The notes: generated by a model from the letters alone, not told the origin. Numbered from the stretch's first letter, positions 1-50,678 are shown. The stretch: 64,000 bases of DNA from Flavobacteriales bacterium (GCA_016787985.1 JAEUTC010000043.1:17145-81144); one strand, 5' to 3'. A program made the numbers and translations.

Positions 1-1774
1 CTGCTCCACCTCACAGCCATCCACTTCCATCCCCTTCGAGCCACTGTCGGCACCGGATACCGTATGGACAGAGGCGGCGCTAGCAGCGCTGGAACGGTCC
101 CATCAAATAGTGTATGCCGACCAGCGACGCATCACGAACGGACCACAAGGCGACATGTTGGAGGGCGCCAAGCTGGTGAAGCCCGGCCGTGGCTTCTGGT
201 CGGTCTACCACCTGCCGGTTTTGATCAGCGCACCCCAACAGGACTATGCCATCGAAGGGTTCAGTGAAGACGGCAGATACCTAAGGCTGACCCAACGGTC
301 GGGCAGCCTCACGCGTGGCCATGAGAACGCGACCGTGGATCTTCTTTGGGTGGATCTTGAACGTGCCACCTATGCGACCATCAATGTCCGAACGTTCGAC
401 CAGCAATGGGATATGGATGGGGCGGGCACCGATACCAAAGGCCGCATAAGCATCGATTCGGCAGTGGTGACCTGCGCAGGCTCCCATCTATACATCACCC
501 ATGGATGTAAGGTAGATGGTCGTTCAGTGCCGTGCGAAGATCCTGGTGGGGCCTATCTCATCACACCCGAATCGCTGGTGCTCGACACGACCATCTCGGT
601 AGCCCGAACAGACATCGCCGACAATGGACCTCCCGCTCTATTGACCGCGATCGACAGGGCCAGCTTCGTAGAACTGGCGCGCTTATGCCCAGGTGATAGA
701 GGAACACGATCCACATTGGCACCATTGGATGGTGGTGCACGCGAACGACTGCTCCAAGACCATGCCCCTCGTTATGCGAACTGCGCCCTCTCCTACGGCT
801 GGTTGTTGCAGGAAGGACCGCAGACGCGTATCATGCTTCTTTCCGACCGGGATGATGACCATGATCTGCTCTGGTTGGCCTACGACGATGCGGGTAAGCT
901 GGTCGGTTTGGATACCATGGCCTCCCAGTGGGGCGATGGTCAGTTGATCCGTTGGGAATGTGCGGACATTGACCCGTACGGTAACCTCCGAGTAGAAGCG
1001 GTGGAGGAAGAGACTTTGCGCGATGAAGTGGATACCATGGCCTACCGTCGCGACACACTGATCTACACGATCCGGGTCGAAGGCACAGGTCTCTTGGATG
1101 AACAAGGAGAGGTCCGATCGCACTACGCACTTAAGCGACTCCCCGAGGATCTGACGCGATGCTGGGTGGAAAAGCACGCCGCAGCCAATAGACCACCCTA
1201 CCCGTGGAAGTCACTGCGTACGGTGATACCGGAGGATCGGAAGGTGTTCCAACACGTGATAGGCGACTTGAACCGGGATGGTGCGCAGGACCATGTGCTT
1301 GTGTTGACCAACGAAGCGGATGACGGACCTCGCGACCTCCTCATCGCCTTCACCGCGGTCGATCGTGGACAATACGTGCAGCATTCGCTCTTAAAGGCCT
1401 TCCTCCCCGAGAAGACCAGTGGTGGGTTCCATGATCCGATCGGCGAAGAAGGGATCAGCGGGATCTCGATCAACGCAGACACACTGGTGATCACACAATT
1501 CGGTGGTAGTGCCTGGAAGTGGACCAGTACTGACAAATATGTACACGATGGAAGGCGGAACGCATTCTACCTCGTGGAAACCGGTGGACGTAGTTTCCAC
1601 GCGGCCGGAGAAGAAGGCCTGCATGAAGAGCTGAAAGAGCTTGCCATCTTGAAAGCTCGACAAAAGCTCACCCCAGAACAGAGGGTCCGCTACACAGAAC
1701 TGAAGGATCTCGAGGAGAAGGCCACCTGGCGGTCAACACGTTTTGCAGTGGGCCAGAAGCCCATGGCGCGTTGA
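1..1774 (+). CDS. hypothetical protein; reading frame is open from position 2, so the 5' end probably lies outside the window
   Basis: Long ORF (track 110..1774) with varied, protein-like composition; no stop codon in frame upstream of the ATG at 110 back to the window edge. Confidence 0.5.
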   Translation, partial: CSTSQPSTSIPFEPLSAPDTVWTEAALAALERSHQIVYADQRRITNGPQGDMLEGAKLVKPGRGFWSVYHLPVLISAPQQDYAIEGFSEDGRYLRLTQRSGSLTRGHENATVDLLWVDLERATYATINVRTFDQQWDMDGAGTDTKGRISIDSAVVTCAGSHLYITHGCKVDGRSVPCEDPGGAYLITPESLVLDTTISVARTDIADNGPPALLTAIDRASFVELARLCPGDRGTRSTLAPLDGGARERLLQDHAPRYANCALSYGWLLQEGPQTRIMLLSDRDDDHDLLWLAYDDAGKLVGLDTMASQWGDGQLIRWECADIDPYGNLRVEAVEEETLRDEVDTMAYRRDTLIYTIRVEGTGLLDEQGEVRSHYALKRLPEDLTRCWVEKHAAANRPPYPWKSLRTVIPEDRKVFQHVIGDLNRDGAQDHVLVLTNEADDGPRDLLIAFTAVDRGQYVQHSLLKAFLPEKTSGGFHDPIGEEGISGISINADTLVITQFGGSAWKWTSTDKYVHDGRRNAFYLVETGGRSFHAAGEEGLHEELKELAILKARQKLTPEQRVRYTELKDLEEKATWRSTRFAVGQKPMAR

Positions 1775-3710: not shown

Positions 3711-3985
3711 GCGCGACGTGACCGAGACGCACCGCGCGCCATCCCGCTTTCAAAGTCGCATCAGCGGAAGGTTCGGGGCCTCCTCCCCTATGCCGATCCG
3801 CGCGTTATAACGAGCCGCTTTCAGGCTGCTCAGGTCGATCTTCGTTAACCGACCTGGGGTGGCTGGCGGAAGTACTAGATCGGCAGGTCGGGACAAAGAT
3901 CCTCTGTAGACGTAATGTAGCGCGTGAGCCCACACCTCGCCGTAGTGAAGTGGTGTGTTCACATTCGAACAGGGACCTCGATAAG

Positions 3986-5242
3986 ATGGAAACACACCGG
4001 ATCATGAACCGCCCCGCCTACCTCATTATCGGCCTTAGCGCACTGCTCTTCTCCTGCGGCGAGAGTGCCGAGAACACGATGGACCAATACGGCCAAGACC
4101 CCAGGATGAGCGAGTTGGAAGCGCGGATGGCGCAGATCACCGGCCAACCCGCACCAGAAGGCCAGTCAGCCAATGGCTGGGAACAACAGGGGGGTGAAGA
4201 AGGTGGATCAGGCTTCGCTCAACGAACTGCAACAGCAGCAGGCATGCGCACACATACCCTGAACAGTTCATCCTATAACGTTCCCTTCGCGCAGCTGGAT
4301 CTGCCCGCCCATTGGAACGTCCAAGGCATGGAAAGGGGCGACTGGACCGCGACGGCCCCCGGGGCGAACGTCAGGAACACGAAGCCCGCCAGCTTCATGA
4401 TGGTGGGTGGTCAGCTGGGTCAATTCTACCAGGCGAACGGACAGCAGATGCGTGCCCCGGTATCCCCTGAACAGGTGGTGATGCAGGACCTGGCTCCGCG
4501 GATGCGCCAGCAGGGCTACGAACTGGTCGGCCAAGCGCCAGCACCCGGCGTGGAACAGGTCGATCAGCGTGGCATGAACGGCTTGTACGTATCGGGGCAG
4601 GCACAAAAGACCTGCAAGGCCAACCTCAGCGAATGGCGGCGTGGCGACAAGCGGCTTGCCGTAGTGCTGCATTGGTTCAGCATCAGTAGTGCGGACATGG
4701 TGAACTGGGGCTACTACACCACCGAGTTGGAATCCACCGAAGGCACCTACGAACGTGAGAAGAGCGGATTGCTCAGTGGTCTCTCCACGATGCGTTTCAA
4801 TCCCGCCTACTTCGCGGCCCAGCACCGCCAAGCCAGACAGAAGGAGCAGGAGAGCATGGCCGCACACCAGCAGCAAATGATGAACAACCAGCAGAGCTGG
4901 AATGCCCACAACGCCCGCATGCGCAGCAACCAAGCCGCCTTCGATGCCAGCCAGGCCGCACACCGCGACATGGTGAACAGCGTGAACAACTCCATGATGG
5001 GCACCTGGAACAACACCAACGCCACCATGGATCGCATGCAGGATGCGACCATCAACGGTATCCGTGGGGAGCAGAACGCTTGGAACCCACAGACCGGCGA
5101 GCAAGGCAAGGTGGAAGCCGGGTACAACAACTACTGGGTGAACGGCGATGGCCAGTACTTCGGGACCAACGACGTCATGTATGACCCGAACGTGGGAAGT
5201 CAGTCGGGTGAACAATGGCAACAGATGGAGACCGAGCCGTGA
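3986..5242 (+). CDS. lipoprotein with a Q/N/M-rich low-complexity C-terminal half
   Basis: Lipobox LLFSCG after a hydrophobic leader (start could be 3986 or 4004). The C-terminal roughly 150 aa is dominated by Q, N, M, A and W (QQQMMNNQQSWNAHNARMRSNQAAF...). Confidence 0.6.
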   Translation: METHRIMNRPAYLIIGLSALLFSCGESAENTMDQYGQDPRMSELEARMAQITGQPAPEGQSANGWEQQGGEEGGSGFAQRTATAAGMRTHTLNSSSYNVPFAQLDLPAHWNVQGMERGDWTATAPGANVRNTKPASFMMVGGQLGQFYQANGQQMRAPVSPEQVVMQDLAPRMRQQGYELVGQAPAPGVEQVDQRGMNGLYVSGQAQKTCKANLSEWRRGDKRLAVVLHWFSISSADMVNWGYYTTELESTEGTYEREKSGLLSGLSTMRFNPAYFAAQHRQARQKEQESMAAHQQQMMNNQQSWNAHNARMRSNQAAFDASQAAHRDMVNSVNNSMMGTWNNTNATMDRMQDATINGIRGEQNAWNPQTGEQGKVEAGYNNYWVNGDGQYFGTNDVMYDPNVGSQSGEQWQQMETEP

Positions 5243-5251
5243 TGGCACGCC

Positions 5252-5977
5252 GTGGAGTGGCTCAGGAGTATCGAACTTCGCCGCATGCCCACGACGCCAT
5301 CGGTCATCATCCCGAAGTCGACCCTCAGCTTCCTCGACGACTTGGAGGCGCACAATGAAAAGCCCTGGTTCGAAGCGAACAAGCCCAGGTACCAGACCGC
5401 CCACGCGAACATGGTGGCCTTCGCCGAAGCGCTGTTGGAACGGATGCGGGTGCATGACAAGCTGAGCACCCCCAGCGGCGCGAAGAGCCTGATGCGCATT
5501 TACACGGATCAGCGTTTCCACAAGGACAAGCCGCCCTACGCGCCGCGTTTCGGAGGTCGCTTGGCACGGGTGAAGCCGGCCCTACGCGGGGGATACTTCT
5601 ACCGGATCCAGCCCGGTGATCGGTCGCACGTCACCTGCGGCTTCATGGGACCCGAACCGGAGGATCTTCGACTGATCCGGCAGGACATCGCCTACGACCA
5701 CGCCTCCTGGCGGAAGATCCTTCGTGGCAAGAACCTTCGCATCCACTTCGGAGAACTTTTCGGTGAGGAAGTGGCCACGGTCCCCCGTGGATATGCGAAG
5801 GACCACCCTGCTGCCGATCTCTTGCGGAAACGCCAATTCCTTCTTCGCCGCACGTTCACGGACAAAGAAGTCCTTTCGCCGGTATTCTTGGATGAAGTGG
5901 TGAAGACCTACCGCTCGGTACGTCCGTGGTTCGATCATATGACCGCTGTGCTGACCACCGACGGCAACGGAGCATAG
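5252..5977 (+). CDS. DUF2461/TIGR02453 family protein
   Basis: 241-aa ORF; the PWFEANKPRYQ...FGGRL...GGYYFRIQPG pattern matches the TIGR02453 family. Confidence 0.7.
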   Translation: MEWLRSIELRRMPTTPSVIIPKSTLSFLDDLEAHNEKPWFEANKPRYQTAHANMVAFAEALLERMRVHDKLSTPSGAKSLMRIYTDQRFHKDKPPYAPRFGGRLARVKPALRGGYFYRIQPGDRSHVTCGFMGPEPEDLRLIRQDIAYDHASWRKILRGKNLRIHFGELFGEEVATVPRGYAKDHPAADLLRKRQFLLRRTFTDKEVLSPVFLDEVVKTYRSVRPWFDHMTAVLTTDGNGA

Positions 5978-5978
5978 A

Positions 5979-6692
5979 TCAGGATCGCGTTCGGTCAGAC
6001 CGACCCAGGATGCGCATTTGCAGTACATCCACGAAGAAGGCGAAGGCCATGGAGCCATAGATGAAGCCCTTCGGGATCGGATGACCGGCTCCTTCGGCCA
6101 CCAGCGCCACGCCGATCACCATGAGGAAGCTGAGCGCGAGGATCTTGAAACTGGGGTGCTGGGCGATGAAAGCGGCGATGGGTTTCGCGGCCACGAGCAT
6201 GATCACCACGGTGACCACCACGGCCACGTACATCATCCACAATTCGTCCACCATCCCCACCGCGGTGATGATCGAATCCACCGAGAAGACGAGATCCAAC
6301 AGCAGCACCTGCATCAGCAATTGGTTGAAACCGGCGGCCTTGGTCTGCACGGCTGCGTTCGGTCCTTTCTCCCCGCTCAGGTGGAAGAGTTCGCGCGTGG
6401 CCTTGTACAGCAGAAAAACACCACCTACCAGCAGGATGAGTTCCTTCCCACTCACACCCTGTCCGAAGACCGTGAAGAGATCGGCATCGAGCTTCATGAT
6501 CCATGAGATCACTGCGAGCAGGCCCAGCCGCATGACCATGGCCAGGCCGATACCCAGCTTCCGCAGCTTGTCGCGTTGGGACTCGGGCAGTTTATCCGCC
6601 AGGATCGAGATGAAGATGATGTTATCGATGCCCAGTACCACCTCCAGGGTGATCAGCGTGAGCAGCGCGATCGTGATATCGAGGATCTCCAT
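5979..6692 (-). CDS. TerC family integral membrane protein
   Basis: 237-aa hydrophobic ORF with the VVLGIDNIIFISIL and SVDSIITAVGMVD motifs typical of TerC. Confidence 0.85.
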   Translation of the reverse strand: MEILDITIALLTLITLEVVLGIDNIIFISILADKLPESQRDKLRKLGIGLAMVMRLGLLAVISWIMKLDADLFTVFGQGVSGKELILLVGGVFLLYKATRELFHLSGEKGPNAAVQTKAAGFNQLLMQVLLLDLVFSVDSIITAVGMVDELWMMYVAVVVTVVIMLVAAKPIAAFIAQHPSFKILALSFLMVIGVALVAEGAGHPIPKGFIYGSMAFAFFVDVLQMRILGRSDRTRS

Positions 6693-6736
6693 GTTTTCGC
6701 ACTGATTCCGTCGGTATGCCCATCAGGGCGGGACGC

Positions 6737-7090
6737 TCAAGCCTTCTTCACGAACTCGCTCTTCAAGGCCATGGCGCCAAAGCCCTCGATGCGGCAATCG
6801 ATGTTGTGTCCCGCAGTACTGCGGGAGCCTTCCACGAGTTTAATGCCGCGCACTTTCGTTCCAGCCTTGAGCGCTTTGGGAGCGCCTTTCACGGCCAGGT
6901 CCTTCACCATCACCACATCATCGCCATCTTTCAGAATGTTGCCATTGGCATCCTTAACCACTGGACCGGCCGCTTCCGCCGCTACTTCCGCCGGGTTCCA
7001 CTCATGGCCGCATTCAGCGCACATCTGAGATGTCCCGGTGGGATAGGTGATCGTAGAGCGACATTCGGGGCAGGGGGTGGTATCGGGCAT
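6737..7090 (-). CDS. phnA: PhnA/YjdC-type zinc-ribbon protein
   Basis: 117 aa; N-terminal CPECRS...CAECGHEW zinc ribbon followed by the [20 protein letters not shown]...[20 protein letters not shown] PhnA C-terminal domain. Confidence 0.8.
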
Positions 7091-7196
7091 GGTGGCCGCG
7101 AAAGTACCGGTCTAGTTCGGATGTGCACCGTTGGAAGGGGGATGGAACGTGCGATCCGGAGCGAACCCTTCTACTGGGTTCGTGGTTCATTGCAGC

Positions 7197-8897
7197 ATGA
7201 ACCATACCCTAGCCTTCGCCTGTTGGTGCTCTTGTGCGCTGCCGGTTCACTCTCAAGAACCCTTGGAACACGTTTGGGCCCGGCGTGTGGGCAGCTCGAA
7301 CGAGAACGAGAAGCTCTGGCGTATGGCCGTGGACGAAGCCGGCAATGTCTTTGTAACAGGCTATTTCCGGGGCACCTTCGCAGAACAAGGTGTTTCGGTC
7401 ACCAGCGTAGGCGGCGCCGATGTACTCCTGCTGAAGTATTCATCACAAGGTGAACTACTGTGGGCCCGGTCGGCTGGTGGCCCACTTGGAGATGGTGCCT
7501 ATGGCATCGATACGGACAAGGATGGGAACGTGTACATTACGGGAACCTTCTCTGGGCTGGCCGTTTTCGGCGATACATTACTCGCTGTGAGCCATCCAGA
7601 GGAGATCGAGTTACCGTTCAGTTTCGTGGCCCGATACTCCTCATCCGGCGAGTTGGCTTGGGTGCGCGCGATGGAGGCAGAAATGGTAGCGGGTAGTTAT
7701 CCCTTTGGACAGAGCTATGCCGTGCGTGTAGGACCCGGTGGCGACCTGATCATTTGCGGCACCTACGCCTCAACTGATGCATCCGCCGGCAACCCTGCGT
7801 TAAGCACGCTCACCTTCGGAGGACAGCCGTTCAGGACATGCGGTCTTCCTTACGAATCGACCTACGTGATGCGAATGGACACCTTGGGCAACACCGAATG
7901 GGTGCACACCGTAGGTGGTCTTAATGGACAAGGGGTCTTCCAAAGCATCGCCTTCGACACGGGGGGTAACATCTGGGTGGGCGGGAACGTCGTTTCCAAC
8001 GCGGGATCCCCGTACGTGGATGGACCGGTGAACCTGGGCACGAGCGCCACGACGACCTACACCGGCGGGGTGATGCGGCTTAGCGGATCCGGTGATCCGA
8101 TCAGCGGCTTCCTGCTTTCGAGCACCAACACCAGCAACGTGGAGGACCTCATCGTTGCTGGGAATGGCGATATCTACCTCAGTGGCTGGCACCGAGGTTC
8201 GCTGTTCGCTTCGCCCTCAGCCACACAAGTGGATGGTTTCCTGATGCGTGTTTCCAACACCGGCTCACCCATCTGGACCAAGCGGCTCACGGGCCCTGGC
8301 AGCGACTTCTTCAGCGGTATAGCCACCACCACTGAACCCAACGAATTGGTAGGTGGCGCTTATTACTTCTTCGATGCGGACCTGGAAGGCGCCGACTTAG
8401 CCGCCAGCCCAGGGAATACGAGTGCGTTGGTCCGCCTCGATACCATGGGCACGGTGCTGGAGGTGGTCCAGCCGGAAGTGCTCTCCGGTTACAGCCTGAT
8501 CGCGGATGTGCAAAGCGACCTCTTCGGGAACTTCTACCTCTGTGGTGATGTCGGTGGTGAGGTGCGCTACGGACCCGACACCATCACATGCCTATCCCAA
8601 GACATGTACGTGGCCAAACTTTCGCCGCAACTATCCACCGGGCTAGAGCTGGTGGAGGTCAACGATCGGTCATTGCTGACCGGTTATCCGAATCCGACGG
8701 ATGGGCTCATCCGCATCAATGGTCCCTCTGCTTCAGGTTCATTCGATCTGTTCGATGCACGTGGCACGTTGGTAAGGCGCTTCACACGACCCGGCCAGGA
8801 CCCCGTACTCGACTTAGGCGGCTTGGCCTCCGGTATCTATGTGCTCTCCGATGGGCAGGGAGCGACCACTCGCATCGCACTGGAAGGAACTGATTAG
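7197..8897 (+). CDS. secreted beta-propeller (SBBP-like repeat) protein with a T9SS C-terminal sorting domain
   Basis: Signal peptide (MNHTLAFACWCSCALPVHSQ); repeated D.AGNV(F/Y).TG..-type units; C-terminal roughly 80 aa (LTGYPNPTDGLIRING...GIYVLSDGQGATTRIALEG) resembles the Por_Secre_tail. Confidence 0.75.
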   Translation: MNHTLAFACWCSCALPVHSQEPLEHVWARRVGSSNENEKLWRMAVDEAGNVFVTGYFRGTFAEQGVSVTSVGGADVLLLKYSSQGELLWARSAGGPLGDGAYGIDTDKDGNVYITGTFSGLAVFGDTLLAVSHPEEIELPFSFVARYSSSGELAWVRAMEAEMVAGSYPFGQSYAVRVGPGGDLIICGTYASTDASAGNPALSTLTFGGQPFRTCGLPYESTYVMRMDTLGNTEWVHTVGGLNGQGVFQSIAFDTGGNIWVGGNVVSNAGSPYVDGPVNLGTSATTTYTGGVMRLSGSGDPISGFLLSSTNTSNVEDLIVAGNGDIYLSGWHRGSLFASPSATQVDGFLMRVSNTGSPIWTKRLTGPGSDFFSGIATTTEPNELVGGAYYFFDADLEGADLAASPGNTSALVRLDTMGTVLEVVQPEVLSGYSLIADVQSDLFGNFYLCGDVGGEVRYGPDTITCLSQDMYVAKLSPQLSTGLELVEVNDRSLLTGYPNPTDGLIRINGPSASGSFDLFDARGTLVRRFTRPGQDPVLDLGGLASGIYVLSDGQGATTRIALEGTD

Positions 8898-8952
8898 AAC
8901 CAACTGGTTGGATCCAGCACAATAGCATGCCTCACCGTGCGTTGGGTGCATC

Positions 8953-9276
8953 GTGCTTCGGTTGACCCAAATCCTTTTCACCACTTCGCTCGTCGCCGGC
9001 TTCTGGTTGTGGTGGGTGTTGGACCACGTGGGACACGGTTACCCTCCGGAAGGCGGCTTCCTGCGCTGGTGGCATGACTTGGAGGGGCAGCCCGAGTTCT
9101 ACCTGCTCTTTGTCCAACTCACCTACCCGCTTTATTGGTGGCTGAGCCGCAACGTCAAATGGTCGGCGTTCTGGCGCACCTGGCGGACGGCCCACATGGC
9201 ATTGGTGCTCCTGCTTCTATTGGCTACGGGTCTTATGTGGCTGGCCACGCCGGACCTTGGTGGTCACTGGGGTTGA
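8953..9276 (+). CDS. small Trp-rich hydrophobic protein (hypothetical)
   Basis: 107-aa ORF with two hydrophobic stretches lying between convergent genes; no recognisable motif. Confidence 0.3.
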   Translation: MLRLTQILFTTSLVAGFWLWWVLDHVGHGYPPEGGFLRWWHDLEGQPEFYLLFVQLTYPLYWWLSRNVKWSAFWRTWRTAHMALVLLLLLATGLMWLATPDLGGHWG

Positions 9277-9280
9277 ACCG

Positions 9281-12200
9281 TCAGGGGATCACGAAGCGCA
9301 AGGTCTCCGAGCGGCTTTCTCGGCGTAGAATGGCCACATAGACACCGGAAACACCACCGCTGAAATGCCACTGCCCATCGGTTAGTGGACCTGAAGCGAC
9401 AAGCCTGCCATTGTGATCATGCACATGGACCTCCTCCCACCCAGAACCATGCAGCACGACACCATCCCCGGGGATGGGTTGCGCCCACACCTGGGCCGCT
9501 GCGCGGTGCTCGATCGCCACCGGACCATGGTAGGCCACCGTACCATCAAGATCGACCTGCGCCAGCCGGTAATACGAAAGGCCATTCAGCGGTACGGGAT
9601 CAGTGAGGGAATAGTCGATCACCGCCGCGCTGAAACCCGCTGCCGGTAAGCTGCCGATGGTGATGTAGGCGATGCCATCACTCCCGCGTTCTAGTTCGAA
9701 ATGGCTCGTGTTGTGTTCCGTGGCCGTGGTCCAATCCAGGCGCACTGCAGAGACTTCATCCGTGCCGGTGAACGAAAGCAGTTCCACGGGAAGGATACCC
9801 ACGGACTCCCAAACGTAGTCCTCCGTTTCTCCCAGCGGTGCGGCCATGTACGGGAAGGTCACGGCCATGCTATCCACGGAAAGGCGCAGTCGGATGTAGA
9901 ACAGCCCGAAGGGGTTCGCAAAGGGCGGTACGGTGAAATGCATCAGGTGCGAACCCAAGCCGGTGAACGGGGCCTTCACCACCGTGTTGGACGAACTCTC
10001 CAAGGAATCGAGGAAATCACCGTCGGCGTTCCAGTCCACGAAGGCATGGACGAAACTCGCGTTGGCCGTGTTGTTCGTTGCTCGGATCTGTAGATCGAAA
10101 GCCCCGCCTATACCCGGCCATGGCGCCGTGTAGGGATTGGTGAGCAGCGCGTCCTCCTCGTTGCCATCGCCATCGGCCATTACGCTGTTGTGCGCGATGC
10201 TTTCCGCACTGGGGCCTGAAAGACCTAATACAAGACCATTCAGAAGTGTAGAAGCCGCGGCCGGTGGCTGGTAGTTGATATTCATGTCGTACACCACCGG
10301 CGCATCACCATAGTCGTACTGCACGTTGGCGATATCGATCTGGCAACTCACCGTAGCATCGCAGCCGCTGACGCTGAGCGCGGTGAGGCTGATGGCCACG
10401 AAGCCATTGGCCACATCGAGCGGTGTGGGCACATAGGTGAGCGTTGGGCTCGACACGGTTCCGCCACCGGTGATCGACCCGACCGTCGTGCTCGCCCATT
10501 GCACGGTGGCAGCGCCAGTAACGGAGATCCCCCCCAAGGTGATATTCCCACCTGCGTTGATGGCACCCGGGCATGTGAAGTTCGCGATGACCGGGACGGT
10601 AAGTGCAGTAACGCCGTTGGCGTCGCTGGCCGTGTTGCTCAAGCCGCTCGCGTTGATCCCCGTGTGGATATCGGTCACCTGCACGAAAAGGTTCGTAAGG
10701 GTGCTGCCGATGTTGAGGTCCACTTGGAACGTGCTCACCCCTGGTGGTAGCGACAAAATGGGCAACAGTACGGAACCGGAGTGACCGTTGATGGCGTGGG
10801 GTACGAACGGATAAGCCGGATCAAGGAGGTTGGGTGCGGCGAGGTCCAACCCTGCACTCAGGTTGTACGGTTCACCGACGTAAGTGGCACCGAGCCCGAC
10901 CAGGTTCATGTCAAGATCCGCACCGGTGATAGTGGTGCCACTGGTATTGGTGATGGTGATGGTGGCCTGCGCATAGTTGCCATTGCCACAGCTGCCAACG
11001 GTGGGAATATTCACGCTCACGCTTATCCGATCGCCGGTAGCACAAGGGCTGCCAGCAGCAGGGATGACCGCATTGTCGCTGGTATGCACGGCACCGTTGA
11101 AGCCACTGATATCCACGAAGGTGCCCGCGTTGAAGTGCTGGTCGGGCATGATGAGGGGCGCGGGATCGCCCGGGGTGAACACCGAGGCGGCAAGTCCCAT
11201 GCTCAGGTTGTAGGTTCCCGCACCCAACGCGCTGTAATCGTAGATGTACTGGCGCACGAAGCACTCGCCGGGATAGAGGATACGCGGTAGCTCATGCTCG
11301 CCGAACTTGGCCAGGTAGGCATCGTCGTTGTCATTGTTCACCGTTTGGTGTGCACCCGTAGTGGCCAGATCGACCAAGCTGGCGGTGAGCCCTACCACGT
11401 ACACATCCCCTGCTGGATCAACGGCCACGGCATAATTCTCATCATCATCCTCGCCACCGAAATACGTCCCCCAGAGCAAGACACCGTCGTTGCTGAACTT
11501 CATCGCGAACGCATCGCGGTTGGTGCCATCGATGGACTCCTTGAAGGAGCCGAACGTAGAGATGCCCGATACGCTTTTGGTGAAACCAGCTACCGTGACA
11601 CGACCAACGGCGTCCATGGCCACATCGTTCATCACCTCATCATCTTCGCCACTCACGTAGGTGCTCCAAACAGGCGAACCGGTCGCATCGAACTTCGCCA
11701 AGAACCCATCATCGCCGCCATTGCTGAAGGGCTGGTAAGGAGCGTTGATATCGATCACGTCCGTGCTATTCGTAGTACCGTTCAAGAAGATGTTCCCAGA
11801 CGGATCACAGGCCACCGAGGGGAAAGTCTCAACGCCAGTGCCTCCGAAATAGGTAGCCCACTGGCGCACACCCGCGCCATTGAAACGGACGAGGTATACA
11901 TCGTCACTATTGTTGATCGATTGGAACGCGCCGGCCGTTGCGATACCGGTGGTGCTCAACGTCTGCCCCACCAGATGCACGTTACCGGCAGGATCACACG
12001 CCACGTTGGCCAGGTCCTCCGTATCGCTACCGCCGTAGTAGGTCGCCCACTGACGCACACCCGCACTGTTGAACTTCACCAAGAAGTTGTCCCCCAGCCC
12101 ACCGTTCGCCACTTGATGGGCGCCCACCGTGGCGATGCCCGCCCCACTTTCCGTGGTTCCCACGAGGTACACGTTACCCACGGCATCCGTCGTCACCGAA

Positions 12201-43738: not shown

Positions 43739-44632
43739 TCAGGCGAAAGGGGCCTTGTGGGTGGTAGTGGTCTGGTCGACTCGCTGATCGCCCCGTGATT
43801 CCGCTTTCCGCGGAGCGTCGATCACTTCGATCCGTTCGGTCACGAGCCTCTTGCTGGGGATCATCACCACACGGTCGCTCTTGCGCAGGGTCATGCTCAC
43901 ACTATCGATGCGCTCGATCACCCCTTCATCATCGCCGATGCGGACGTGCATGCCCGGCTTGAACCGCTCGTTGCCGTAGTAGCTGCCCAGGATGTTGCTG
44001 AGCACATCGCGCGCGGCGAATCCATAGGCCACACCGAAGGCGAGCAAGAGCCCACCAAGGATGATCTGGATGTTCGTGGTAATGAGGGTCGTATCCACAC
44101 CGGCCACGTTCAGTGCGGTGATGGATGCGAAAACGATGGTGATCACGGCCAGGATACGCCCGACGATACGGCCGGCGGACAACTCGACCACGTTGCTCAA
44201 TTGGCTCACCAATCGGCTCACTTTATCCGCACCCCAGATACCCAGTACGAAGATGGCCAATGCGGTAAGCAGCGTAGGCAGGAAGGCGAACGCGCGCTGC
44301 ACCGCGAAGCTCACCAGATGGAGCCCCATGAGATCAGCGGCCGAAAGCACGGCAATGAGCACCATCAGCCACCATACCATCGTGGCCACAAGGCGTGCCG
44401 GCGTGAATCCACCGAAACGGGCAATAGCACGATCGACACCTGAACGCTGAGCCAATGGATCCAATGTGCGCTCGCCGATACGTAGGGCGATCCACCGGAG
44501 GCCTCTGGCCAGCAACAAGCCGACCAAGAGTACCAACAGGCCGGTTAGCACCGCCGGTAGCCTATCGATGATGGCGGCGCCATAAGTGTTGAACGCCTGG
44601 GGCAGTCGGTCTTGGAAGAAAGTCATGTCCAT
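43739..44632 (-). CDS. mechanosensitive ion channel family protein (MscS-like)
   Basis: About 297 aa from MDMTFFQDRL...; TM helices; the RIGDDEGVIERIDSVSMTLRKSDRVVMIPSKRL beta-domain motif. Confidence 0.75.
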   Translation of the reverse strand: MDMTFFQDRLPQAFNTYGAAIIDRLPAVLTGLLVLLVGLLLARGLRWIALRIGERTLDPLAQRSGVDRAIARFGGFTPARLVATMVWWLMVLIAVLSAADLMGLHLVSFAVQRAFAFLPTLLTALAIFVLGIWGADKVSRLVSQLSNVVELSAGRIVGRILAVITIVFASITALNVAGVDTTLITTNIQIILGGLLLAFGVAYGFAARDVLSNILGSYYGNERFKPGMHVRIGDDEGVIERIDSVSMTLRKSDRVVMIPSKRLVTERIEVIDAPRKAESRGDQRVDQTTTTHKAPFA

Positions 44633-44642
44633 GGTGGAGAGA

Positions 44643-44870
44643 TCAAGTAGTTGGGTCCTTCGGGGGTTCAGCGGTGTTCGACTTCCGTCCTTCACCGGAC
44701 CCACCCACGATACGGATCCGTTCGAAAAGTGCCGCGCTGGGGTCGGCCACGAAGAGTTGCAGCATGCGCATGAGCATCATCACGAATTTCACACTTCCCA
44801 CCACTTCGGCACGCAAGTGCTCGGGCGGTTGGTCGGTGGACCGGATCAGCTTGAACGGATTCTCGCTCAT
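44643..44870 (-). CDS. small protein downstream of and overlapping the ECF sigma gene (candidate anti-sigma or regulator)
   Basis: 75-aa ORF with a 4-nt overlap onto the sigma-factor stop; no recognisable motif. Confidence 0.35.
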   Translation of the reverse strand: MSENPFKLIRSTDQPPEHLRAEVVGSVKFVMMLMRMLQLFVADPSAALFERIRIVGGSGEGRKSNTAEPPKDPTT

Positions 44871-45454
44871 GGCTCTTCCGGGAATAAGACGTGATACTTC
44901 GCCAACGCTCGCTCCCGCGCCCGCATGGAGCGCATCTTCACGGCGCTTTCGGAAAGGGCCAGGACATCCATCATGTCCTTCACGGACAATTCATCCTGGT
45001 ACTTCATCAGCAGAATGCCGCGGTCCGCAGGTTCCAAGACATCAAGAACCTTGGCCAGGCGGTCCGCCCGAAGGGAGAGCAGCTCGGCTTCATAGCGTTC
45101 ATCGGCTCCATCATCGATGCGCTCGTCGTCGTCCAACTCGGAGGTCCGCTGCTTTTGGTCCTTGCGCAGATGGTCAAGGCAATAGTTGTAGGTGATGCTG
45201 TACAACCACGTCCCGAAACGACTGCGGTGGTCGAACTTCGTCAGGTTCACGAACGCCTTCAGGAAGATGTCGTGCGTAAGGTCCTGCGCTAGTTCCTTGT
45301 TCCGCGTCATGCTCACGCATTTCTGGAATACCTTGCTCGAGTAGCGGTCGTACAGGATCCCGAAACGGTCCGCGTCCATGTCCCGCTGAAGCTCCGCCAC
45401 GAGGTCCTCGTCGCTAAGCTGGCTGACCGGCTTGGCCTTCTTCCTGAACAACAC
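44867..45454 (-). CDS. RNA polymerase sigma-70 factor, ECF subfamily
   Basis: 195 aa; region 2 (DLTHDIFLKAFVNLTKFDHRSRFGTWLYSITYNYCLDHLR) and region 4 (LSVKDMMDVLALSESAVKMRSMRARERL). Confidence 0.85.
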   Translation of the reverse strand: MLFRKKAKPVSQLSDEDLVAELQRDMDADRFGILYDRYSSKVFQKCVSMTRNKELAQDLTHDIFLKAFVNLTKFDHRSRFGTWLYSITYNYCLDHLRKDQKQRTSELDDDERIDDGADERYEAELLSLRADRLAKVLDVLEPADRGILLMKYQDELSVKDMMDVLALSESAVKMRSMRARERALAKYHVLFPEEP

Positions 45455-46079
45455 TTGGGGAGAGCGTATTCGCCGTTTGGACGTGGAGCGGTGAAAAGGT
45501 CACATACGTCGGATCGGAAGCCTGAAAGAAGGCTGAAGGACGCTGCTTATTGATGAGGATGCCGACCGGTGTGTACCCATGGTGCTACGACGCGAAGCCA
45601 CCTGGGAGAGGCGCTGGCTGATAAAGACACTCAAGCCACCTTGATTGACCCGACTAAAGTCAGTTCACAAAGCACGAGCTTGTTGTGCCTCTTGGCGCGA
45701 AAGTACAGCAGACCACTAAATCGCTGCTACCTTGCAATGAAACGCCATTTTGACATCACAATGCACTACCTACTCACAACTAAGTGGTATCCCAGAGCTC
45801 TAGGTTGCGCCATTATGTCATTTGACCAGCGCTCCAACAGCCTTCCTCTCTACAAGATACGACGTCCTACCCACACCTGAGTTATGAACGACTTGCTGTT
45901 CCATGACAATACCCACTCTTGAATCAAAGAATCCATCATTTGACTGATTATCTGACACTTATATCCTCCTCTACTGCCCACATACAACACAACCGGTCAA
46001 GTTAGTTATTAAGGGGTCCTCATTCTGACACGGTATTTGGATGTAACATTGTGCAGCACACCAGATTGTTGATAACATG

Positions 46080-46110
46080 TTGACAAGAAAACGCACAGAG
46101 GGTAGATTTG
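46080..46110 (+). promoter_or_regulatory. Bacteroidetes-type sigma-A promoter (-33 TTG / -7 TAGATTTG) driving the islet operon
   Basis: TTG (46080-46082), a 20-bp spacer, then TAGATTTG (46103-46110), matching the TAnnTTTG -7 consensus; about 55 bp upstream of the first islet ORF. Confidence 0.5.
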
Positions 46111-46165
46111 GCAAATATTTGGAGGCGTCCAGCAGAAGGTCTTCGACTAATGAACTCTAAGGCCG

Positions 46166-46396
46166 ATGAATCCAATTGAACTAGCAGACCTCATTAGGCA
46201 GTACTCGACTAATGCCAAGGTCAATCGTGAGAACTACGAGGCTGAGTTGCTTCGCATTGTTCAGGACGAGAATCAATTCAACGAACGCGTAATCAACCTT
46301 CATCGCGAGCGTGAACGAATGGAGGAAGAAGCAGAAGCCAATCGCTCATTCGATCCTGAAGTACTTCGTGTTGTGATATCTTATAAGGCCCGTTGA
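46166..46396 (+). CDS. small highly charged protein (76 aa), first gene of the islet operon
   Basis: ORF of plausible composition (RERERMEEEAEANR is coiled-coil-like); ends 21 nt before the next ORF. Confidence 0.45.
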   Translation: MNPIELADLIRQYSTNAKVNRENYEAELLRIVQDENQFNERVINLHRERERMEEEAEANRSFDPEVLRVVISYKAR

Positions 46397-46417
46397 GTTC
46401 TACGCTCAACGCTAATA

Positions 46418-48013
46418 ATGACATCAAGTTCTTCCTGGTCTCACTACATCTGCCCAGAAGCTCAGAGTCCAAGTGAGTGGATTCTTGAGACTCTAGTCAA
46501 AATTGCAAGGAAACGCTTTCCCAGCTATAAGTACAAGGACTTAAAGAGAGATGCCCATCTCGGTTACTTCGCGGACTACTTCTCAAGTCAATCTAGGTTC
46601 ATCGCGGCAACAATCATATGTGAGCACGAATATCACAGTGTGAGCTATGCGAGTGACTATTCGAGGTATTATAGTCAAGCGCATCGCAACATTGAGAAGA
46701 AAGTTGCTCGGATTCACTTCTTCTCAGAACGTCTTCCTCGTAAAACTATAATTGATTCGTTAGGTACAGCAAATTTTAAAACGTACGTCGCAGAGAATTA
46801 TCTTGGTCATATAACGCTGAAGCCCATTCTAAACTCACTTGTAGGAGCCTCTATAGTCAAGACATACCCACAAACGAAAGCCAGATTTTTTTCCGTTGTA
46901 CGGAACTATACCGTCAATCTCTTTGGAGAAGACATTAATTTAAAATCACTTGTATTCCAACAACAAGATGGCGCGGTAAGCGCATGTGCCACTGCTGCAC
47001 TATGGATGGCCTTCCACAAAACACATCTTGATTTCAGACATGCACTGCATACACCTCACGAAATCACATCACTAGCAGGCTATGGGGACGGTGTTGGTCG
47101 AAACTTTCCCAGCACAGGACTTGATGTAAACCAAATTATTTCCGCAATAGCTGCCCATGGCCTCGACCCTGAGTTGCGCACTCGAAACAAGTTTAAGACT
47201 ACATATCTGAAAGACGACCAACTCGTCACAGAGTCGGTGCTTGAACCCATTTTCCTAAAACGATTCGCATATTCATACCTATCAGCTCAAATACCAGTGC
47301 TACTTGGCTTCAACTATGGTACTGCGTATCACCTAGTCACACTAAACGGATACCGTTTTGTTGATGACGAGAAAGAAATTATGTCCTTGAATCATGTCAA
47401 AGACGACCATCCAATGATAGCTGATTATTTATGCCGACTTTATTGTCATGATGATCAAATTGGCCCTTTCGCTCGAATTGGTTTTCCTCAGTATTTTCCG
47501 AATGCAATTTCTTTCATGCAGGAAAGCAAAATAGCTTACCCCAGAGTTTTGATTGTGCCTTTGCAAACTAGTATAAGAGTGAATTATAATGACATTAGCG
47601 ATGTAGTGCGATGGACACATCTTCAATATAAAGTGCCGGGGCAGCCAACGCCATATATATGGGATATTAGACTCCTCCGCAGTAATGACTACAAAAGGAC
47701 AGCATGCCGCAATCGAGGAATTTTACCATCGATTCGAGAAAAAATCGTAACCGCCTCATTGCCTAAATATGTTTGGGTTGCCTCCCAATACGCTGCGACA
47801 GATTTGCAACACCCTCTAATGGACATGGTATTTGATTCAACTGGCACTCGTGGTGCCTTCTGTTGTGACATGATTCATTTCTATAGTCCTGCCCAAGCAA
47901 ATCTGGCTCGAAGAGTATTTGAACAGGTACTAGCAAGTAGTAAGGATGACTACCCCGACTTTTATGCAGACATGATCGTCGAGTCCGCAACGAAACACCT
48001 TGCAAACACATGA
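46418..48013 (+). CDS. 531-aa multidomain protein with a central C39/papain-like cysteine peptidase-type signature
   Basis: Gln-x6-Cys motif FQQQDGAVSACATAALWMAF (Cys190) and YHLVTLNGYRFVDDE...NHVKDD (His305, Asp316/317), spaced as in the C39 and BtrH-like papain fold; unknown flanking domains of about 180 aa. Confidence 0.7.
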   Translation: MTSSSSWSHYICPEAQSPSEWILETLVKIARKRFPSYKYKDLKRDAHLGYFADYFSSQSRFIAATIICEHEYHSVSYASDYSRYYSQAHRNIEKKVARIHFFSERLPRKTIIDSLGTANFKTYVAENYLGHITLKPILNSLVGASIVKTYPQTKARFFSVVRNYTVNLFGEDINLKSLVFQQQDGAVSACATAALWMAFHKTHLDFRHALHTPHEITSLAGYGDGVGRNFPSTGLDVNQIISAIAAHGLDPELRTRNKFKTTYLKDDQLVTESVLEPIFLKRFAYSYLSAQIPVLLGFNYGTAYHLVTLNGYRFVDDEKEIMSLNHVKDDHPMIADYLCRLYCHDDQIGPFARIGFPQYFPNAISFMQESKIAYPRVLIVPLQTSIRVNYNDISDVVRWTHLQYKVPGQPTPYIWDIRLLRSNDYKRTACRNRGILPSIREKIVTASLPKYVWVASQYAATDLQHPLMDMVFDSTGTRGAFCCDMIHFYSPAQANLARRVFEQVLASSKDDYPDFYADMIVESATKHLANT

Positions 48014-48732
48014 ACTACCTGGCAAAATATCAAGGAGCAACCAAATCATGGGTGCATGAGCCCGTATCAAATGAAAGACTAGTTGAAGACCTACCTGAGT
48101 TGCTGAGTAAGGTGAATAGAGACCTCGACTTTGTCTGTATGTTCAATGGTGGTGATTGGAGTGAGCTCAATTTAGTGCTTCAGAATCCAGAGTTTCAAAA
48201 GGAGCTGCATGAAATAAGCAAGAATAAAGTTCTCTTTGTTCATCTCGTTATGAAAGGCCGAAATGATACTGGAGAGCGATTCGGCGATTTGGCACAAATC
48301 GAATTCGGCGATGACAGTAGAGCCGAATTTTGGCGAGCCTTTCTGGCGAAGAATTTTAAAGATCGGGCAGGTTCTTACATAGAGGAAATGTCTGACCTTC
48401 TAAGCAGGCCGTCAATCGCAATTTTTCGATTGTTCCGTAACTTGGATTCTAACGAAGCTCAGAGTATTGAAGATGCATTTGTACAGCCATTAATGCCAGT
48501 TTCGCGGGCAGCATACGAGAGAGACCCACTTAAGGTAGACGACATTTATGAATCCACTCTGGAGTACTTCAAGCTCATTAATGATCAAATCATTAGTGAC
48601 CAGCAACATTGGCAGGACATGAAAAAAAGAGAAGATATGCGCACATGGCTGGAGCCCCTAATCAAGAACACCCCAAAGGGGGTAAGTCTCTCAAAAATAA
48701 TTGTAATGAGCGCTTCTCAGTTCTTTGGATAA
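48010..48732 (+). CDS. hypothetical 240-aa protein, translationally coupled (ATGA overlap) to the peptidase-like gene
   Basis: ORF with a 4-nt overlap onto the upstream stop; acidic, no recognisable motif. Confidence 0.6.
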   Translation: MNYLAKYQGATKSWVHEPVSNERLVEDLPELLSKVNRDLDFVCMFNGGDWSELNLVLQNPEFQKELHEISKNKVLFVHLVMKGRNDTGERFGDLAQIEFGDDSRAEFWRAFLAKNFKDRAGSYIEEMSDLLSRPSIAIFRLFRNLDSNEAQSIEDAFVQPLMPVSRAAYERDPLKVDDIYESTLEYFKLINDQIISDQQHWQDMKKREDMRTWLEPLIKNTPKGVSLSKIIVMSASQFFG

Positions 48733-48998
48733 ATGTGAGTACAGGCTTCCTCATTTCTTGGCTGTAAACTTCACAAAGGTTCGGCCAAGTGATAGCCGGG
48801 TGGCCGGAGGGTGCCCCGTTAATCCAAGTCTCATTCAAAAAGGGTACTCAAAACACCACTTTGGAAAGAAGAAAGGTTGTCAAAGAACAACTTTGGCTGA
48901 TTCAGGGTGGACAAGAGTAGAACCAATTGCTAGTTAACTCAATTTATGGCTGTGCGATGTACGTTAATGCATGATGCACACACTAAAAGTAATTCATG

Positions 48999-49073
48999 TG
49001 GGCAATGCCGGATTCGAACCAGCGACCCCTACCTTGTCGAGGTAGTGCTCTGAACCAGCTGAGCTAATTGCCC
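48999..49073 (-). tRNA. tRNA-Val (anticodon GAC); CCA not encoded; anticodon loop reads UCGACAA (C at position 33)
   Basis: Cloverleaf drawn by hand: acceptor GGGCAAT/ATTGCCC, D-arm GCTC/GAGC, anticodon stem CTACC/GGTAG, T-arm GCTGG-TTCGAAT-CCGGC, discriminator A. Overall very similar to E. coli tRNA-Val(GAC). Confidence 0.85.
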
Positions 49074-49189
49074 GTTCCCTGCGGAGGGCGGCAAATATAT
49101 GGTTCTGTGCCGGATTTGCGGCCCCTTGGTCCGATTTCTGATGGTCCGTCCGTGCACATCCTGATCGGGATCAGTCAGGTTGTGGTGCG

Positions 49190-49855
49190 TTGGCGCTAGT
49201 TTTGCGCCCGAAAGCCATGCCACCAGCCAAAGCAGCCACCAGCGGTAGGATCTTCCAGAATCCTGTTCTGGAAGCGCTCACCAAGACCCACATCGCCGTT
49301 CCCTTGACCATTTTCTTCGGTCTTGGCGCCGTTTCCGGGTATTTCTCGGTACATGTCATGGGGTTCTCGGTGCTCAACACCGTATCCATGTACTTGGTCG
49401 GTGCGCTTTTCTTCACCTTCATCGAGTACATCGCCCATCGCAAGTTGTACCACATGGGCACCTCAGGTAGTGAGCGGAAAGCCCGCATTCAGTACATCAT
49501 GCATGGCGTGCACCACGATCATCCGCGCGATAAGAAACGCCTGGCCCTCCCGCCCGTCGTTTCCGTGGTGCTGGCCACCCTGTTCATGGGCTTGTTCCGC
49601 TTGGTGCTCGGCCCCAGCGGCATTGCCTTCGGTGGTGGGTTCATGACCGGCTACGCCACCTATTTGATGGTCCACTACGCGGTGCATACCATGAATCCGC
49701 CCAAGAACATCTTCGGCGTGCTCTGGAAGCACCATAACCTGCACCACTATGTGGGCGACAAAGGCGCTTTTGGTGTGAGTTCGCCCCTTTGGGACTACGT
49801 CTTCGGTACCATGCCCGAGGACCCCAAGGCCGGTCGCCGTCCGGTTTCGGCCTGA
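49190..49855 (+). CDS. fatty acid hydroxylase superfamily (sterol-desaturase-like) membrane protein
   Basis: 221 aa; the His boxes HRKLYH, HGVHHDHP and HHNLHHY; start may be the internal ATG at 49217. Confidence 0.8.
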   Translation: MALVLRPKAMPPAKAATSGRIFQNPVLEALTKTHIAVPLTIFFGLGAVSGYFSVHVMGFSVLNTVSMYLVGALFFTFIEYIAHRKLYHMGTSGSERKARIQYIMHGVHHDHPRDKKRLALPPVVSVVLATLFMGLFRLVLGPSGIAFGGGFMTGYATYLMVHYAVHTMNPPKNIFGVLWKHHNLHHYVGDKGAFGVSSPLWDYVFGTMPEDPKAGRRPVSA

Positions 49856-49862
49856 TCCCGCC

Positions 49863-50678
49863 ATGCAGGCTGCACGCTTCGGGCTTTGGAGCTTGCGACC
49901 TGGAGCACGAGGTTGGTTCTTTCTGGTGCCGCTGTTCGGCCTGATCACGGCGTGCGGCGAACCCGATACCACCGGGATCCTCCTCATCGGCCATGGCGGC
50001 CTAGGGCCCGATGCCCCCCACCCTATGAACAGCCAAGAAGCTTTTGTGGGGGCTTTGGAACAGGGCTTGGACGGCGTGGAGATCGATGTGCAACTGACCA
50101 AGGACTCTCAGCTGGTGGCCCACCATGATCACGCCCTGAGCAGCAACGGCTGTTCGGGTCGCATCCACGACCATACCTGGAAGGAATTACAGATGTGTGA
50201 ACAGTCCGAGCAGGCCGAGGGTGCTTTCCATGGCGTGCAGGTCCCATCGTTGATCGAGGAGCTTCAACGTCGCTTTCCCAAAGCACACTACACCCTGGAT
50301 GTGAAACTGAATAGCGGGGCCGATTGGTGGAGCTACCTGCACACAACCGCCCGCGCCATCGCACGCCTACATGCACAGCTGGGATCTAAGGACAACCTCA
50401 CGGTGGAATGTCGTACGCCGGATCTCCTGCGCGCCATGGCCGAAAGCGCCCCTGGCGTGCCTTACCACTTGATCACCGAGGATGTGTCGAAGGACCTTTC
50501 GACCGCTGTGGCTCTCGGGTGCGCGGGCATTACGGTACAAGCGGATGCAGTGGATGCCGATGAGGCAGCGGCCATCCACGAAGCCGGTCTCGCATTGACG
50601 CTGTATGGAGTGGGATCTCCCTGGAGCTTGAAGCGTGCGATCGCCCTCAAGCCTGAAGCCATCCAAGTGGACCTTTAA
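49863..50678 (+). CDS. glycerophosphodiester phosphodiesterase family lipoprotein
   Basis: 271 aa; lipobox ITACG; the GHGG...PHPMNSQEAF...GLDGVEIDVQLTKDSQLVAHHD GDPD-fold motifs. Confidence 0.7.
   Translation: MQAARFGLWSLRPGARGWFFLVPLFGLITACGEPDTTGILLIGHGGLGPDAPHPMNSQEAFVGALEQGLDGVEIDVQLTKDSQLVAHHDHALSSNGCSGRIHDHTWKELQMCEQSEQAEGAFHGVQVPSLIEELQRRFPKAHYTLDVKLNSGADWWSYLHTTARAIARLHAQLGSKDNLTVECRTPDLLRAMAESAPGVPYHLITEDVSKDLSTAVALGCAGITVQADAVDADEAAAIHEAGLALTLYGVGSPWSLKRAIALKPEAIQVDL

Follow-up and report, generated by a model that had tools for sequence, protein, structure and literature searches.

A low-G+C islet at a tRNA-Val 3' end in a Flavobacteriales genome carries a C39-like peptidase gene and a small partner gene with a conserved C-terminal tail motif

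A 64,000-nucleotide (nt) stretch from a Flavobacteriales bacterium (GCA_016787985.1 JAEUTC010000043.1:17145-81144, hereafter the window) contains a low-G+C islet with three co-directional open reading frames (ORFs) of 76, 531 and 240 amino acids (aa), the products of which we call p76, p531 and p240. p531 resembles a cysteine peptidase of the C39 type. p76 is encoded immediately upstream and would belong to a family of small partners alike in little but a 12-residue C-terminal motif. By comparative sequence analysis, the two-gene unit of p76 and p531 is a conserved functional cassette, and p240 is an extra. As to function, the cassette may be a type II toxin-antitoxin or abortive-infection-like module in which p76 restrains p531, a reading that we favour while holding it at somewhat less than even confidence.

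The islet stands out by composition. Its G+C content is 0.435, as compared with 0.598 ± 0.013 (minimum 0.571) across the other 3,378-nt segments of the window, which places it 12 standard deviations under the rest. Sliding G+C is 0.39-0.47 from about 45600 to 48999 and 0.57-0.62 in both flanks. The G+C content at third codon positions (GC3) is 0.39-0.46 in the three islet genes and 0.68-0.81 in six neighbouring host genes. The islet lies between the upstream region of an extracytoplasmic function (ECF) sigma gene and the 3' end of tRNA-Val(GAC), which faces it, and its right edge is flush with the tRNA. A first-pass annotation of the window had described a low-G+C islet from 45650, abutting this tRNA and carrying the 76-aa ORF, a 21-nt spacer, the 531-aa ORF and, via an ATGA overlap, the 240-aa ORF. 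All of this holds, with the ORFs at the same coordinates and the bounds of the islet refined (Table 1).

Eighty related loci were fetched with the downstream flanking gene (221 aa, 49190-49855) as query. At least 14 of them keep the order mechanosensitive-channel gene, anti-sigma gene, ECF sigma gene, tRNA-Val and 221-aa gene, and from the sigma gene to the tRNA they have no more than about 160-640 nt. Relatives of p76, p531 or p240 were found in none of the 80 (tblastn, 1e-5). The closest relative, L008, is a Flavobacteriales metagenome-assembled genome with flanks at 91-93% nt identity and, at its empty site, a tRNA 100% identical to that of the window. In blastn, positions 6146-7766 of L008 correspond to 44000-45619 of the window and positions 7808-8810 to 48998-50000. 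The points at which this alignment stops and restarts define the bounds of the islet, which stands in place of 41 nt of L008. L171, a metagenome contig of 983 nt, aligns with 45573-46539 of the window at 89% nt identity, across the left junction. Because L171 has the same left junction, the islet was inherited within a sub-lineage and is not private to one genome. The region is thus confirmed as a horizontally acquired islet at the tRNA-Val 3' end, as had been proposed, and its genes are not uniformly present in relatives.

Among the features expected of a tRNA-associated island, the compositional anomaly, the position at the tRNA 3' end and the empty site in relatives are present, and an integrase gene and direct repeats derived from the tRNA 3' end are missing. 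In agreement with the first-pass annotation, neither an integrase nor a transposase was found among the islet ORFs or as a remnant in the non-coding ends; the 546-nt left arm and the 265-nt right arm hold no gene remnants. A partial repeat of the tRNA end had been envisaged near 45.6 kb. A search for a second copy of the tRNA 3' end, with up to three mismatches, returned the tRNA itself only. No terminal repeats of the islet were detected, the repeat scans giving chance-level pairs only. An Rfam scan of 44500-49500 had the tRNA as its sole match.

The AlphaFold2 (AF2) model of p531 reaches a predicted local distance difference test score (pLDDT) of 90.9. Its best Foldseek match is LahT150 with bound leader peptide, and C39 leader peptidases (LahT150, PCAT1, ComA) are among its closest structural relatives. 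Staphopains also rank as a top structural match, with PDB 1pxv listed by Foldseek. The model thereby confirms the predicted core of p531 as a papain/C39-like fold of clan CA, C39- or C47-like, and agrees with the Cys-His signature flanked by two unmatched domains that had been recognised earlier. In a 63-member alignment, the invariant residues are Tyr72, Arg98, His100, Phe102, Tyr128, Gly130, Gly143, Gly170, Gln183, Asp184, Cys190, Pro293, His305, Gly311, Asp345, Asp346 and Gly349. In the model, His305 sits on strand 303-314 and Asp345 ends strand 338-345. The N- and C-terminal regions are conserved, yet none of the listed structural matches covers them. Some homologues (P0033, P0070, P0073 and P0063/P0065, 671-789 aa) have C-terminal extensions reaching 150-216 aa past the three-domain core.

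Sequence searches place p531 outside the curated families. It has no match in Pfam, NCBIfam, PADLOC or PHROGs. Peptidase_C39_2 gave sub-threshold matches in 13 of the 63 aligned members (best E 0.0028) and none in p531 itself. A profile search of PDB sequences with the p531 family returned nothing, and a viral fold search in BFVD nothing meaningful. There are 76 homologues at E ≤ 1e-3, the closest non-self one at 41% identity, and a few are labelled "C39-like" at their source. A pattern scan recovered 509 relatives in metagenome contigs and only 4 in 2.9 million viral contigs. The source labels of the module include Flavobacteriales, Cytophagales (Hymenobacter), Bacteroidales and Acidobacteriota (Pyrinomonadaceae).

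The analysis also corrects the public gene model of p531. JNN32_02285 (457 aa) begins 74 residues late, omitting codons 46418-46639. The segment left out folds confidently in the model and holds the near-invariant Glu69 and the invariant Tyr72; residues 1-74 are kept in the copy of L172 (68% identity). Owing to this conservation, ATG 46418 is taken as the true start. Compared with a diverged copy, p531 and p76 are both under purifying selection, with a ratio of nonsynonymous to synonymous differences (pN/pS) of about 0.23; for p76 against L172, pN is 0.185 and the saturated pS is 0.81.

In the contexts fetched early, a gene of 53-67 aa was always found upstream of the large gene, without detectable similarity between loci. 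A census of about 90 loci revealed that these partners are alike in little but their last 12 residues, with a loose W..S..G stretch farther upstream. The tail motif reads [VI]-[SDT]-x-[ED]-x-L-x-x-x-[FIV]-[TS]-[IVL]-COOH. Counts in 51 non-redundant tails are, from the N-terminal side, V30/I17/L4 at -12, S, D or T at -11, Q or P at -10, E22/D11 at -9, L43 at -7, F23/I16/V9 at -3, T22/S17/N8 at -2 and I21/V14/L12 at -1, followed by the stop codon. Three positions are hydrophobic almost throughout: V/I/L at -12 (51/51), L/M/I at -7 (49/51) and F/I/V/Y/L at -3 (51/51). Prolines are frequent at -10 and -4. A reasonable reading of this pattern is that the tail would form a short helix and then an extended end. 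The partners are hydrophilic and charged, without membrane-active character, and their variable N-terminal part has 45-60 residues.

The threshold for the tail scores is the 99.9% quantile found for 3,339 background ORF tails of these loci. When the model was cross-validated two-fold, 43 of the 51 held-out tails exceeded it. With the full tail model, a same-strand partner upstream of the large gene did so in 64 of 86 loci; these 64 partners have a median length of 68 aa and end a median of 16 nt before the large gene. The partner motif was not found at the N-terminus of any long homologue (Rosetta-stone test, 0 cases).

p76 fits this family at its tail. Its 12-mer FDPEVLRVVISY scores 8.9-9.6 bits, the 8.9 being set against a threshold of 8.4, and it fits only when shifted inward from the C-terminus by three residues, so that p76 ends S-FDPEVLRVVISY-KAR. 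A score of 9.6 bits is reached at 1 of 79,980 six-frame window positions and in 3 of 5,000 shuffles. The close relatives P0078 (95%) and P0079 (68%) keep the ending ...VVISYKAR. In L091, which has the large protein most similar to p531, the partner ends ...KISY-RLDS. Since the relatives keep KAR and L091 has RLDS, the p76 sub-clade has a short post-motif extension. A hidden Markov model of the partner family did not score p76 above shuffled sequences. Judged from its tail, synteny and the sub-clade pattern, p76 is a divergent member of the tail-motif partner family. The first-pass annotation had found no family for any of the three proteins; this stands for the curated families and for p240, and p76 now has its partner family.

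Other sub-clades have upstream-ORF tails below the threshold with endings of their own: ...SKHFK and ...GKRFK in L003 and L134, ...KEIGMLD and ...REIAGVD in L103 and L113, and ...DRLKVRARL in L004, L095 and L096. Such endings suggest that the tail may have co-diversified with the protease.

p240 is predicted to be translationally coupled to p531 via the ATGA overlap. It found only itself among 5.8 billion clusters, and likewise among 1.84 billion representatives (exhaustive phmmer), and no family of Pfam, NCBIfam, PADLOC or PHROGs matches it. At pLDDT 39, its AF2 single-sequence model is unusable. A coupled same-strand third gene of 230-260 aa occurs only in the loci nearest p531 (the window, L091, L092-94, L120, L001/2 and L098); in the other loci, what follows the large gene is an unrelated gene or one on the opposite strand. 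The third genes are mutually unrecognisable, except for a weak likeness between p240 and that of L091 (phmmer 12.8 bits; hhalign probability 27%). The third gene of L098 (254 aa, 13 nt downstream) has a weak bGSDM match over its N-terminal 35 residues (E 0.0054), and that of L092 (5022-5774) a weak NsnC match (E 8e-4), profile and protein both being 251 long. These cases hint that the third position may hold interchangeable effectors. An assignment of the third genes as gasdermins was rejected: the sole weak match is in the distant L098, p240 itself has no bGSDM match, and PDB sequences gave none. p240 is, as far as its sequence tells, an orphan and a lineage-variable accessory. Of the three-gene operon that had been put forward as one module, the p76-p531 part is conserved and the p240 part varies.

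The genomic neighbourhoods of the cassette were surveyed with 150 ORFs from 37 loci. Among Pfam families, ThiF is the commonest (6), ahead of phage integrase (5) and of Peptidase_M78, ResIII, HTH_3 and TrwB (3 each), and PADLOC adds matches to E1-E2, RmrA, CapP and PtuA. An ABC transporter was found neither in the islet nor among the 25 commonest families of these neighbour ORFs. At single loci, TraG/TrwB coupling proteins are encoded nearby (L001, L002), as are AbiGi (L003), a TIR-TPR protein (L006), a Type I restriction-modification system with an integrase (L088), a serine recombinase and an RHS protein (L089), and phage-like genes with an AAA_21 ATPase (L090). From these neighbourhoods, the family is a resident of mobile elements and defence islands.

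The ThiF genes are part of Bub/6E ubiquitination-like cassettes with Prok-E2_E, Multi_ubiq and DUF6527/BubE. Such cassettes lie 1-2.5 kb from the pair in 7 of the 37 loci (L097, L099, L104, L133, L136, L155 and L170; for instance L170:1928-4231 and L155:2086-3890), mostly in divergent orientation and with HTH or ImmA/IrrE (CapH/CapP-like) genes between. The association spans considerable divergence, because pairwise identity among the ThiF proteins is only 22-43%. The window has no Bub/6E cassette. Bub operons are reported often to include CapH and CapP and to be located in tRNA-inserted mobile elements (Bub paper).

L004/L005 is a plasmid of Hymenobacter tibetensis (CP094674.1, pair region 3745-10746) with resolvases nearby. 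Here the pair lies between a gene for a 593-aa Peptidase_C14 (caspase-like) protein and one for a 1,017-aa fusion of Peptidase_C14 with DEAD/Helicase_C, in a dense cluster of protease-based candidate defence genes.

Three functions had been listed for the islet at first: a protease-based anti-phage or abortive-infection system, a toxin-immunity pair and a peptide-maturation module. The genomic context favours a mobile-element or defence role, and peptide maturation is the least supported of the three. Four points fit the toxin-antitoxin or abortive-infection reading: the gene order is antitoxin-like, the surroundings are mobile elements and defence islands, staphopains with their dedicated inhibitors set a precedent, and the islet has been retained without mobility genes. 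A more specific version, which we regard as possible with lower confidence, is that the cassette represents an undescribed class, in which a stand-alone C39-like peptidase is paired with an antitoxin whose tail mimics the product, and release leads to abortive infection or post-segregational killing.

In this mechanism, p531 would be an enzyme of three domains in the cytoplasm, the central one an active cysteine peptidase (Gln183, Cys190, His305, Asp345/346), and p76 its dedicated small partner. The tail of the partner would dock in the substrate groove of the peptidase with its C-terminus at the catalytic cysteine, a product-like pseudosubstrate keeping the enzyme occupied. In the lineage of the window, the peptidase would first trim KAR after Tyr73 (ISY|KAR). 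Phage infection, loss of the element or a similar trigger would be answered either by the partner, through its variable N-terminal part, or by p531, through its two flanking domains. The trigger would remove the restraint, and the freed peptidase would cleave cellular or invader proteins. p240 would be a lineage-specific add-on, possibly a substrate or an effector. C39 domains recognise an amphipathic leader helix by its hydrophobic residues at -12, -7 and -4 and cut after -1 (PMC10885120). The partner tail looks like a double-glycine leader that stops exactly at the cleavage position, as if already cleaved.

Several observations weigh against this favoured reading. The third hydrophobic position of the tail is -3 and not -4, and the last two residues are [TS]-[IVL] and not Gly-Gly, so that the leader analogy is a resemblance and not an identity. 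About a quarter of the loci have a small upstream ORF without a clear motif. The partner has no recognisable DNA-binding domain, the link to Bub cassettes in 7 of the 37 loci could point to another role, and PADLOC, a check suggested at the outset, returned no significant match for p76, p531 or p240, nor did PHROGs have a model for them.

With the C39 peptidases (PF03412/PF13529), p531 shares a papain-like fold as well as the arrangement of Gln (oxyanion), Cys, His and Asp, though no member of its family reaches the curated C39 score threshold. C39 domains of PCAT/AMS transporters (ComA, PCAT1, LahT150) are linked to a transporter, whereas p531 is stand-alone, with no linked transporter and with two extra conserved domains of about 170-180 aa each. 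The C39 substrate is an N-terminal double-glycine leader followed by cargo; the partner motif is C-terminal, with a [TS]-[IVL] end and 0-4 residues after it. The staphopain-staphostatin pairs (MEROPS C47) consist of a protease and a dedicated co-operonic inhibitor. Staphostatins are beta-barrel proteins of about 100 aa encoded downstream, whereas the partner here is encoded upstream, has about 68 aa and is conserved mainly in its 12-residue tail. Staphopains are secreted pro-enzymes and p531 is presumably cytoplasmic. No sequence relationship of the cassette to staphopain-staphostatin pairs was detected.

As in type II toxin-antitoxin systems, the small gene comes first, in tight coupling with a larger enzyme gene downstream, and the distribution is patchy over plasmids, integrative and conjugative elements, prophage-like contigs and islands, with persistence in an islet without mobility genes. 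Unlike those systems, the cassette matches no known toxin or antitoxin family, and no DNA-binding domain was found in the partner. The Pepco-protease systems also have a small protein directly upstream of a protease, a hydrophobic residue at the functional C-terminus and a defence context (PMC12642450). Pepco has about 117 aa and forms beta-barrel pores, and its proteases are of the trypsin or caspase type, fused to STAND or other sensors (PMC12642450). Here, the protease is C39-like, and its partners are shorter and hydrophilic and in most cases end at the motif. p76 gave no match in Pfam or PADLOC, a weak test of homology to Pepco since the presence of a Pepco model in either library was not verified. 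Beside p531, p240 gave no bGSDM match that would make it a gasdermin homologue. In the literature, with incomplete coverage, no described papain- or C39-like toxin with a small partner, no pseudosubstrate-tail antitoxin and no description of this cassette surfaced.

If the favoured reading is true, protease-based toxin-antitoxin and defence systems would gain a new family, and proteases a new way of being gated, by a partner offering a leader tail that resembles the product. Intracellular regulation would then have reused the groove by which C39 domains recognise leaders, known from bacteriocin export. The family comprises hundreds of metagenome loci and has no model in Pfam, NCBIfam, PADLOC or PHROGs. 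The islet itself is a clean case of DNA that lacks mobility genes and yet has been kept beside a tRNA 3' end, as would suit an addictive module.

In another arrangement, p531 would be a sensor-protease that cleaves and activates a latent effector, either p76 near its tail or p240, following the logic of gasdermin-protease and Pepco-protease pairs. The two conserved extra domains of p531 could then be the sensors that detect the invader. C-terminal cleavage behind a conserved Ile licenses Pepco, which is encoded directly upstream of its protease (PMC12642450), and the post-motif extension (3 residues in the window, 4 in L091) could be a cleavable tail. The coupled third genes of 230-260 aa nearest p531, with their weak bGSDM (L098) and NsnC (L092) matches, would supply effectors. 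In most loci, however, the partner ends at the motif and has nothing C-terminal to remove, and the hydrophilic, charged partners have no membrane-active character. Most loci have no third gene or an unrelated one, no effector family matches p240, and the bGSDM and NsnC matches fall far short of significance for a family assignment. We consider this explanation unlikely, if worth keeping in view. The Bub association raises a further one, that the pair regulates adjacent immune operons in the manner of CapH/CapP or ImmR/ImmA, signal-dependent cleavage of the small protein by the protease switching on the adjacent genes, or that p531 is a deconjugating enzyme for Bub-type systems, which use a ubiquitin-like protein (Ubl). 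The window and most loci have neither a Bub operon nor an adjacent operon to regulate, no DNA-binding domain was detected in the partner, every sequence test for a beta-grasp Ubl was negative, and Bub operons already carry their own peptidases (Bub paper). A shared location in defence islands would account for the association, and we regard this role as improbable.

That LahT150, PCAT1 and ComA are among the closest structural relatives, and that the hydrophobic register of the tail resembles a double-glycine leader, would also suit peptide maturation, with the small ORF as precursor and p531 as processing peptidase, as in C39 systems for bacteriocins or for peptides made on the ribosome and modified post-translationally (RiPPs). 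The leader-like segment is, however, C-terminal, with no cargo or only 3-4 residues after it, and the region that varies is the hydrophilic N-terminal part. No ABC transporter, modification enzyme or immunity gene is present in the islet or recurs in the neighbourhoods; p76, p531 and p240 match no transporter, secretion or membrane-protein family, and the surrounding contexts are mobile elements and defence islands. Lacking an exporter, a modification enzyme and cargo after the leader-like segment, peptide maturation is the least likely explanation and has hardly any probability in our estimate. A very small probability also goes to decay, that is, to the islet being a fossil of a larger island whose genes have no current function and are heading for loss. 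The missing integrase and att repeat and the loss of the 41 nt of ancestral sequence at the junction would agree with it. Against decay, the three ORFs and the catalytic residues are intact, p76 and p531 are under the purifying selection described above, and the islet is kept at the same site in a second lineage (L171), where the non-coding left arm is 84% identical to that of the window and p76 about 97%.

Table 1. Positions of the islet, its genes and associated features in the window.
Feature	Position	Strand	Basis or remark
Acquired low-G+C islet	45620-48997 (3,378 nt)	no strand	blastn against L008, G+C
p76, small partner protein	46166-46396	+	tail motif, synteny
p76 tail motif codons FDPEVLRVVISY (residues 62-73), then KAR extension	46349-46384	+	position-specific scoring matrix
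p531, three-domain cysteine peptidase-like protein	46418-48013	+	
p531 domains (approximate residues): N-terminal 1-180; papain/C39-like 181-360; C-terminal 361-531			
p531 codons of invariant Gln183, Asp184 and candidate nucleophile Cys190	46964-46987	+	63-member alignment
p531 codons of His305 (47330-47332) to Asp345/Asp346 (47450-47455)	47330-47455	+	63-member alignment
p240, orphan accessory gene	48010-48732	+	ATGA overlap with p531
tRNA-Val(GAC), intact	48998-49073	-	ARAGORN; Rfam RF00005, 64.6 bits
Promoter-like site TTGACA-17-TAGATT, also read as TAnnTTTG (TAGATTTG)	46080-46110	+	consensus match 10/12
Host element CCACCTGGGAGAGGCGCTGGC, 21 nt	45598-45618	no strand	directly left of insertion point

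The promoter-like site lies about 55 nt upstream of the p76 ATG and is kept in L171. Near the islet, 5 such sites were found against 5.8 expected from shuffles, that is, without enrichment. Because such sites are not above the shuffle level, the promoter called at this place by the first-pass annotation is present as a sequence and at most plausible as a promoter.

The tRNA-Val was considered as a general insertion hotspot and this was rejected. Some relatives have multi-kb gaps at the other side of the tRNA; there is no sign of a hotspot because the gene in the gap is core and has host G+C. The host element CCACCTGGGAGAGGCGCTGGC recurs, at a distance of about 40-50 nt from the tRNA 3' end, in L008 and L012, which have the empty site, and in part in L013. 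It could belong to the promoter or regulatory region of the ECF sigma gene.

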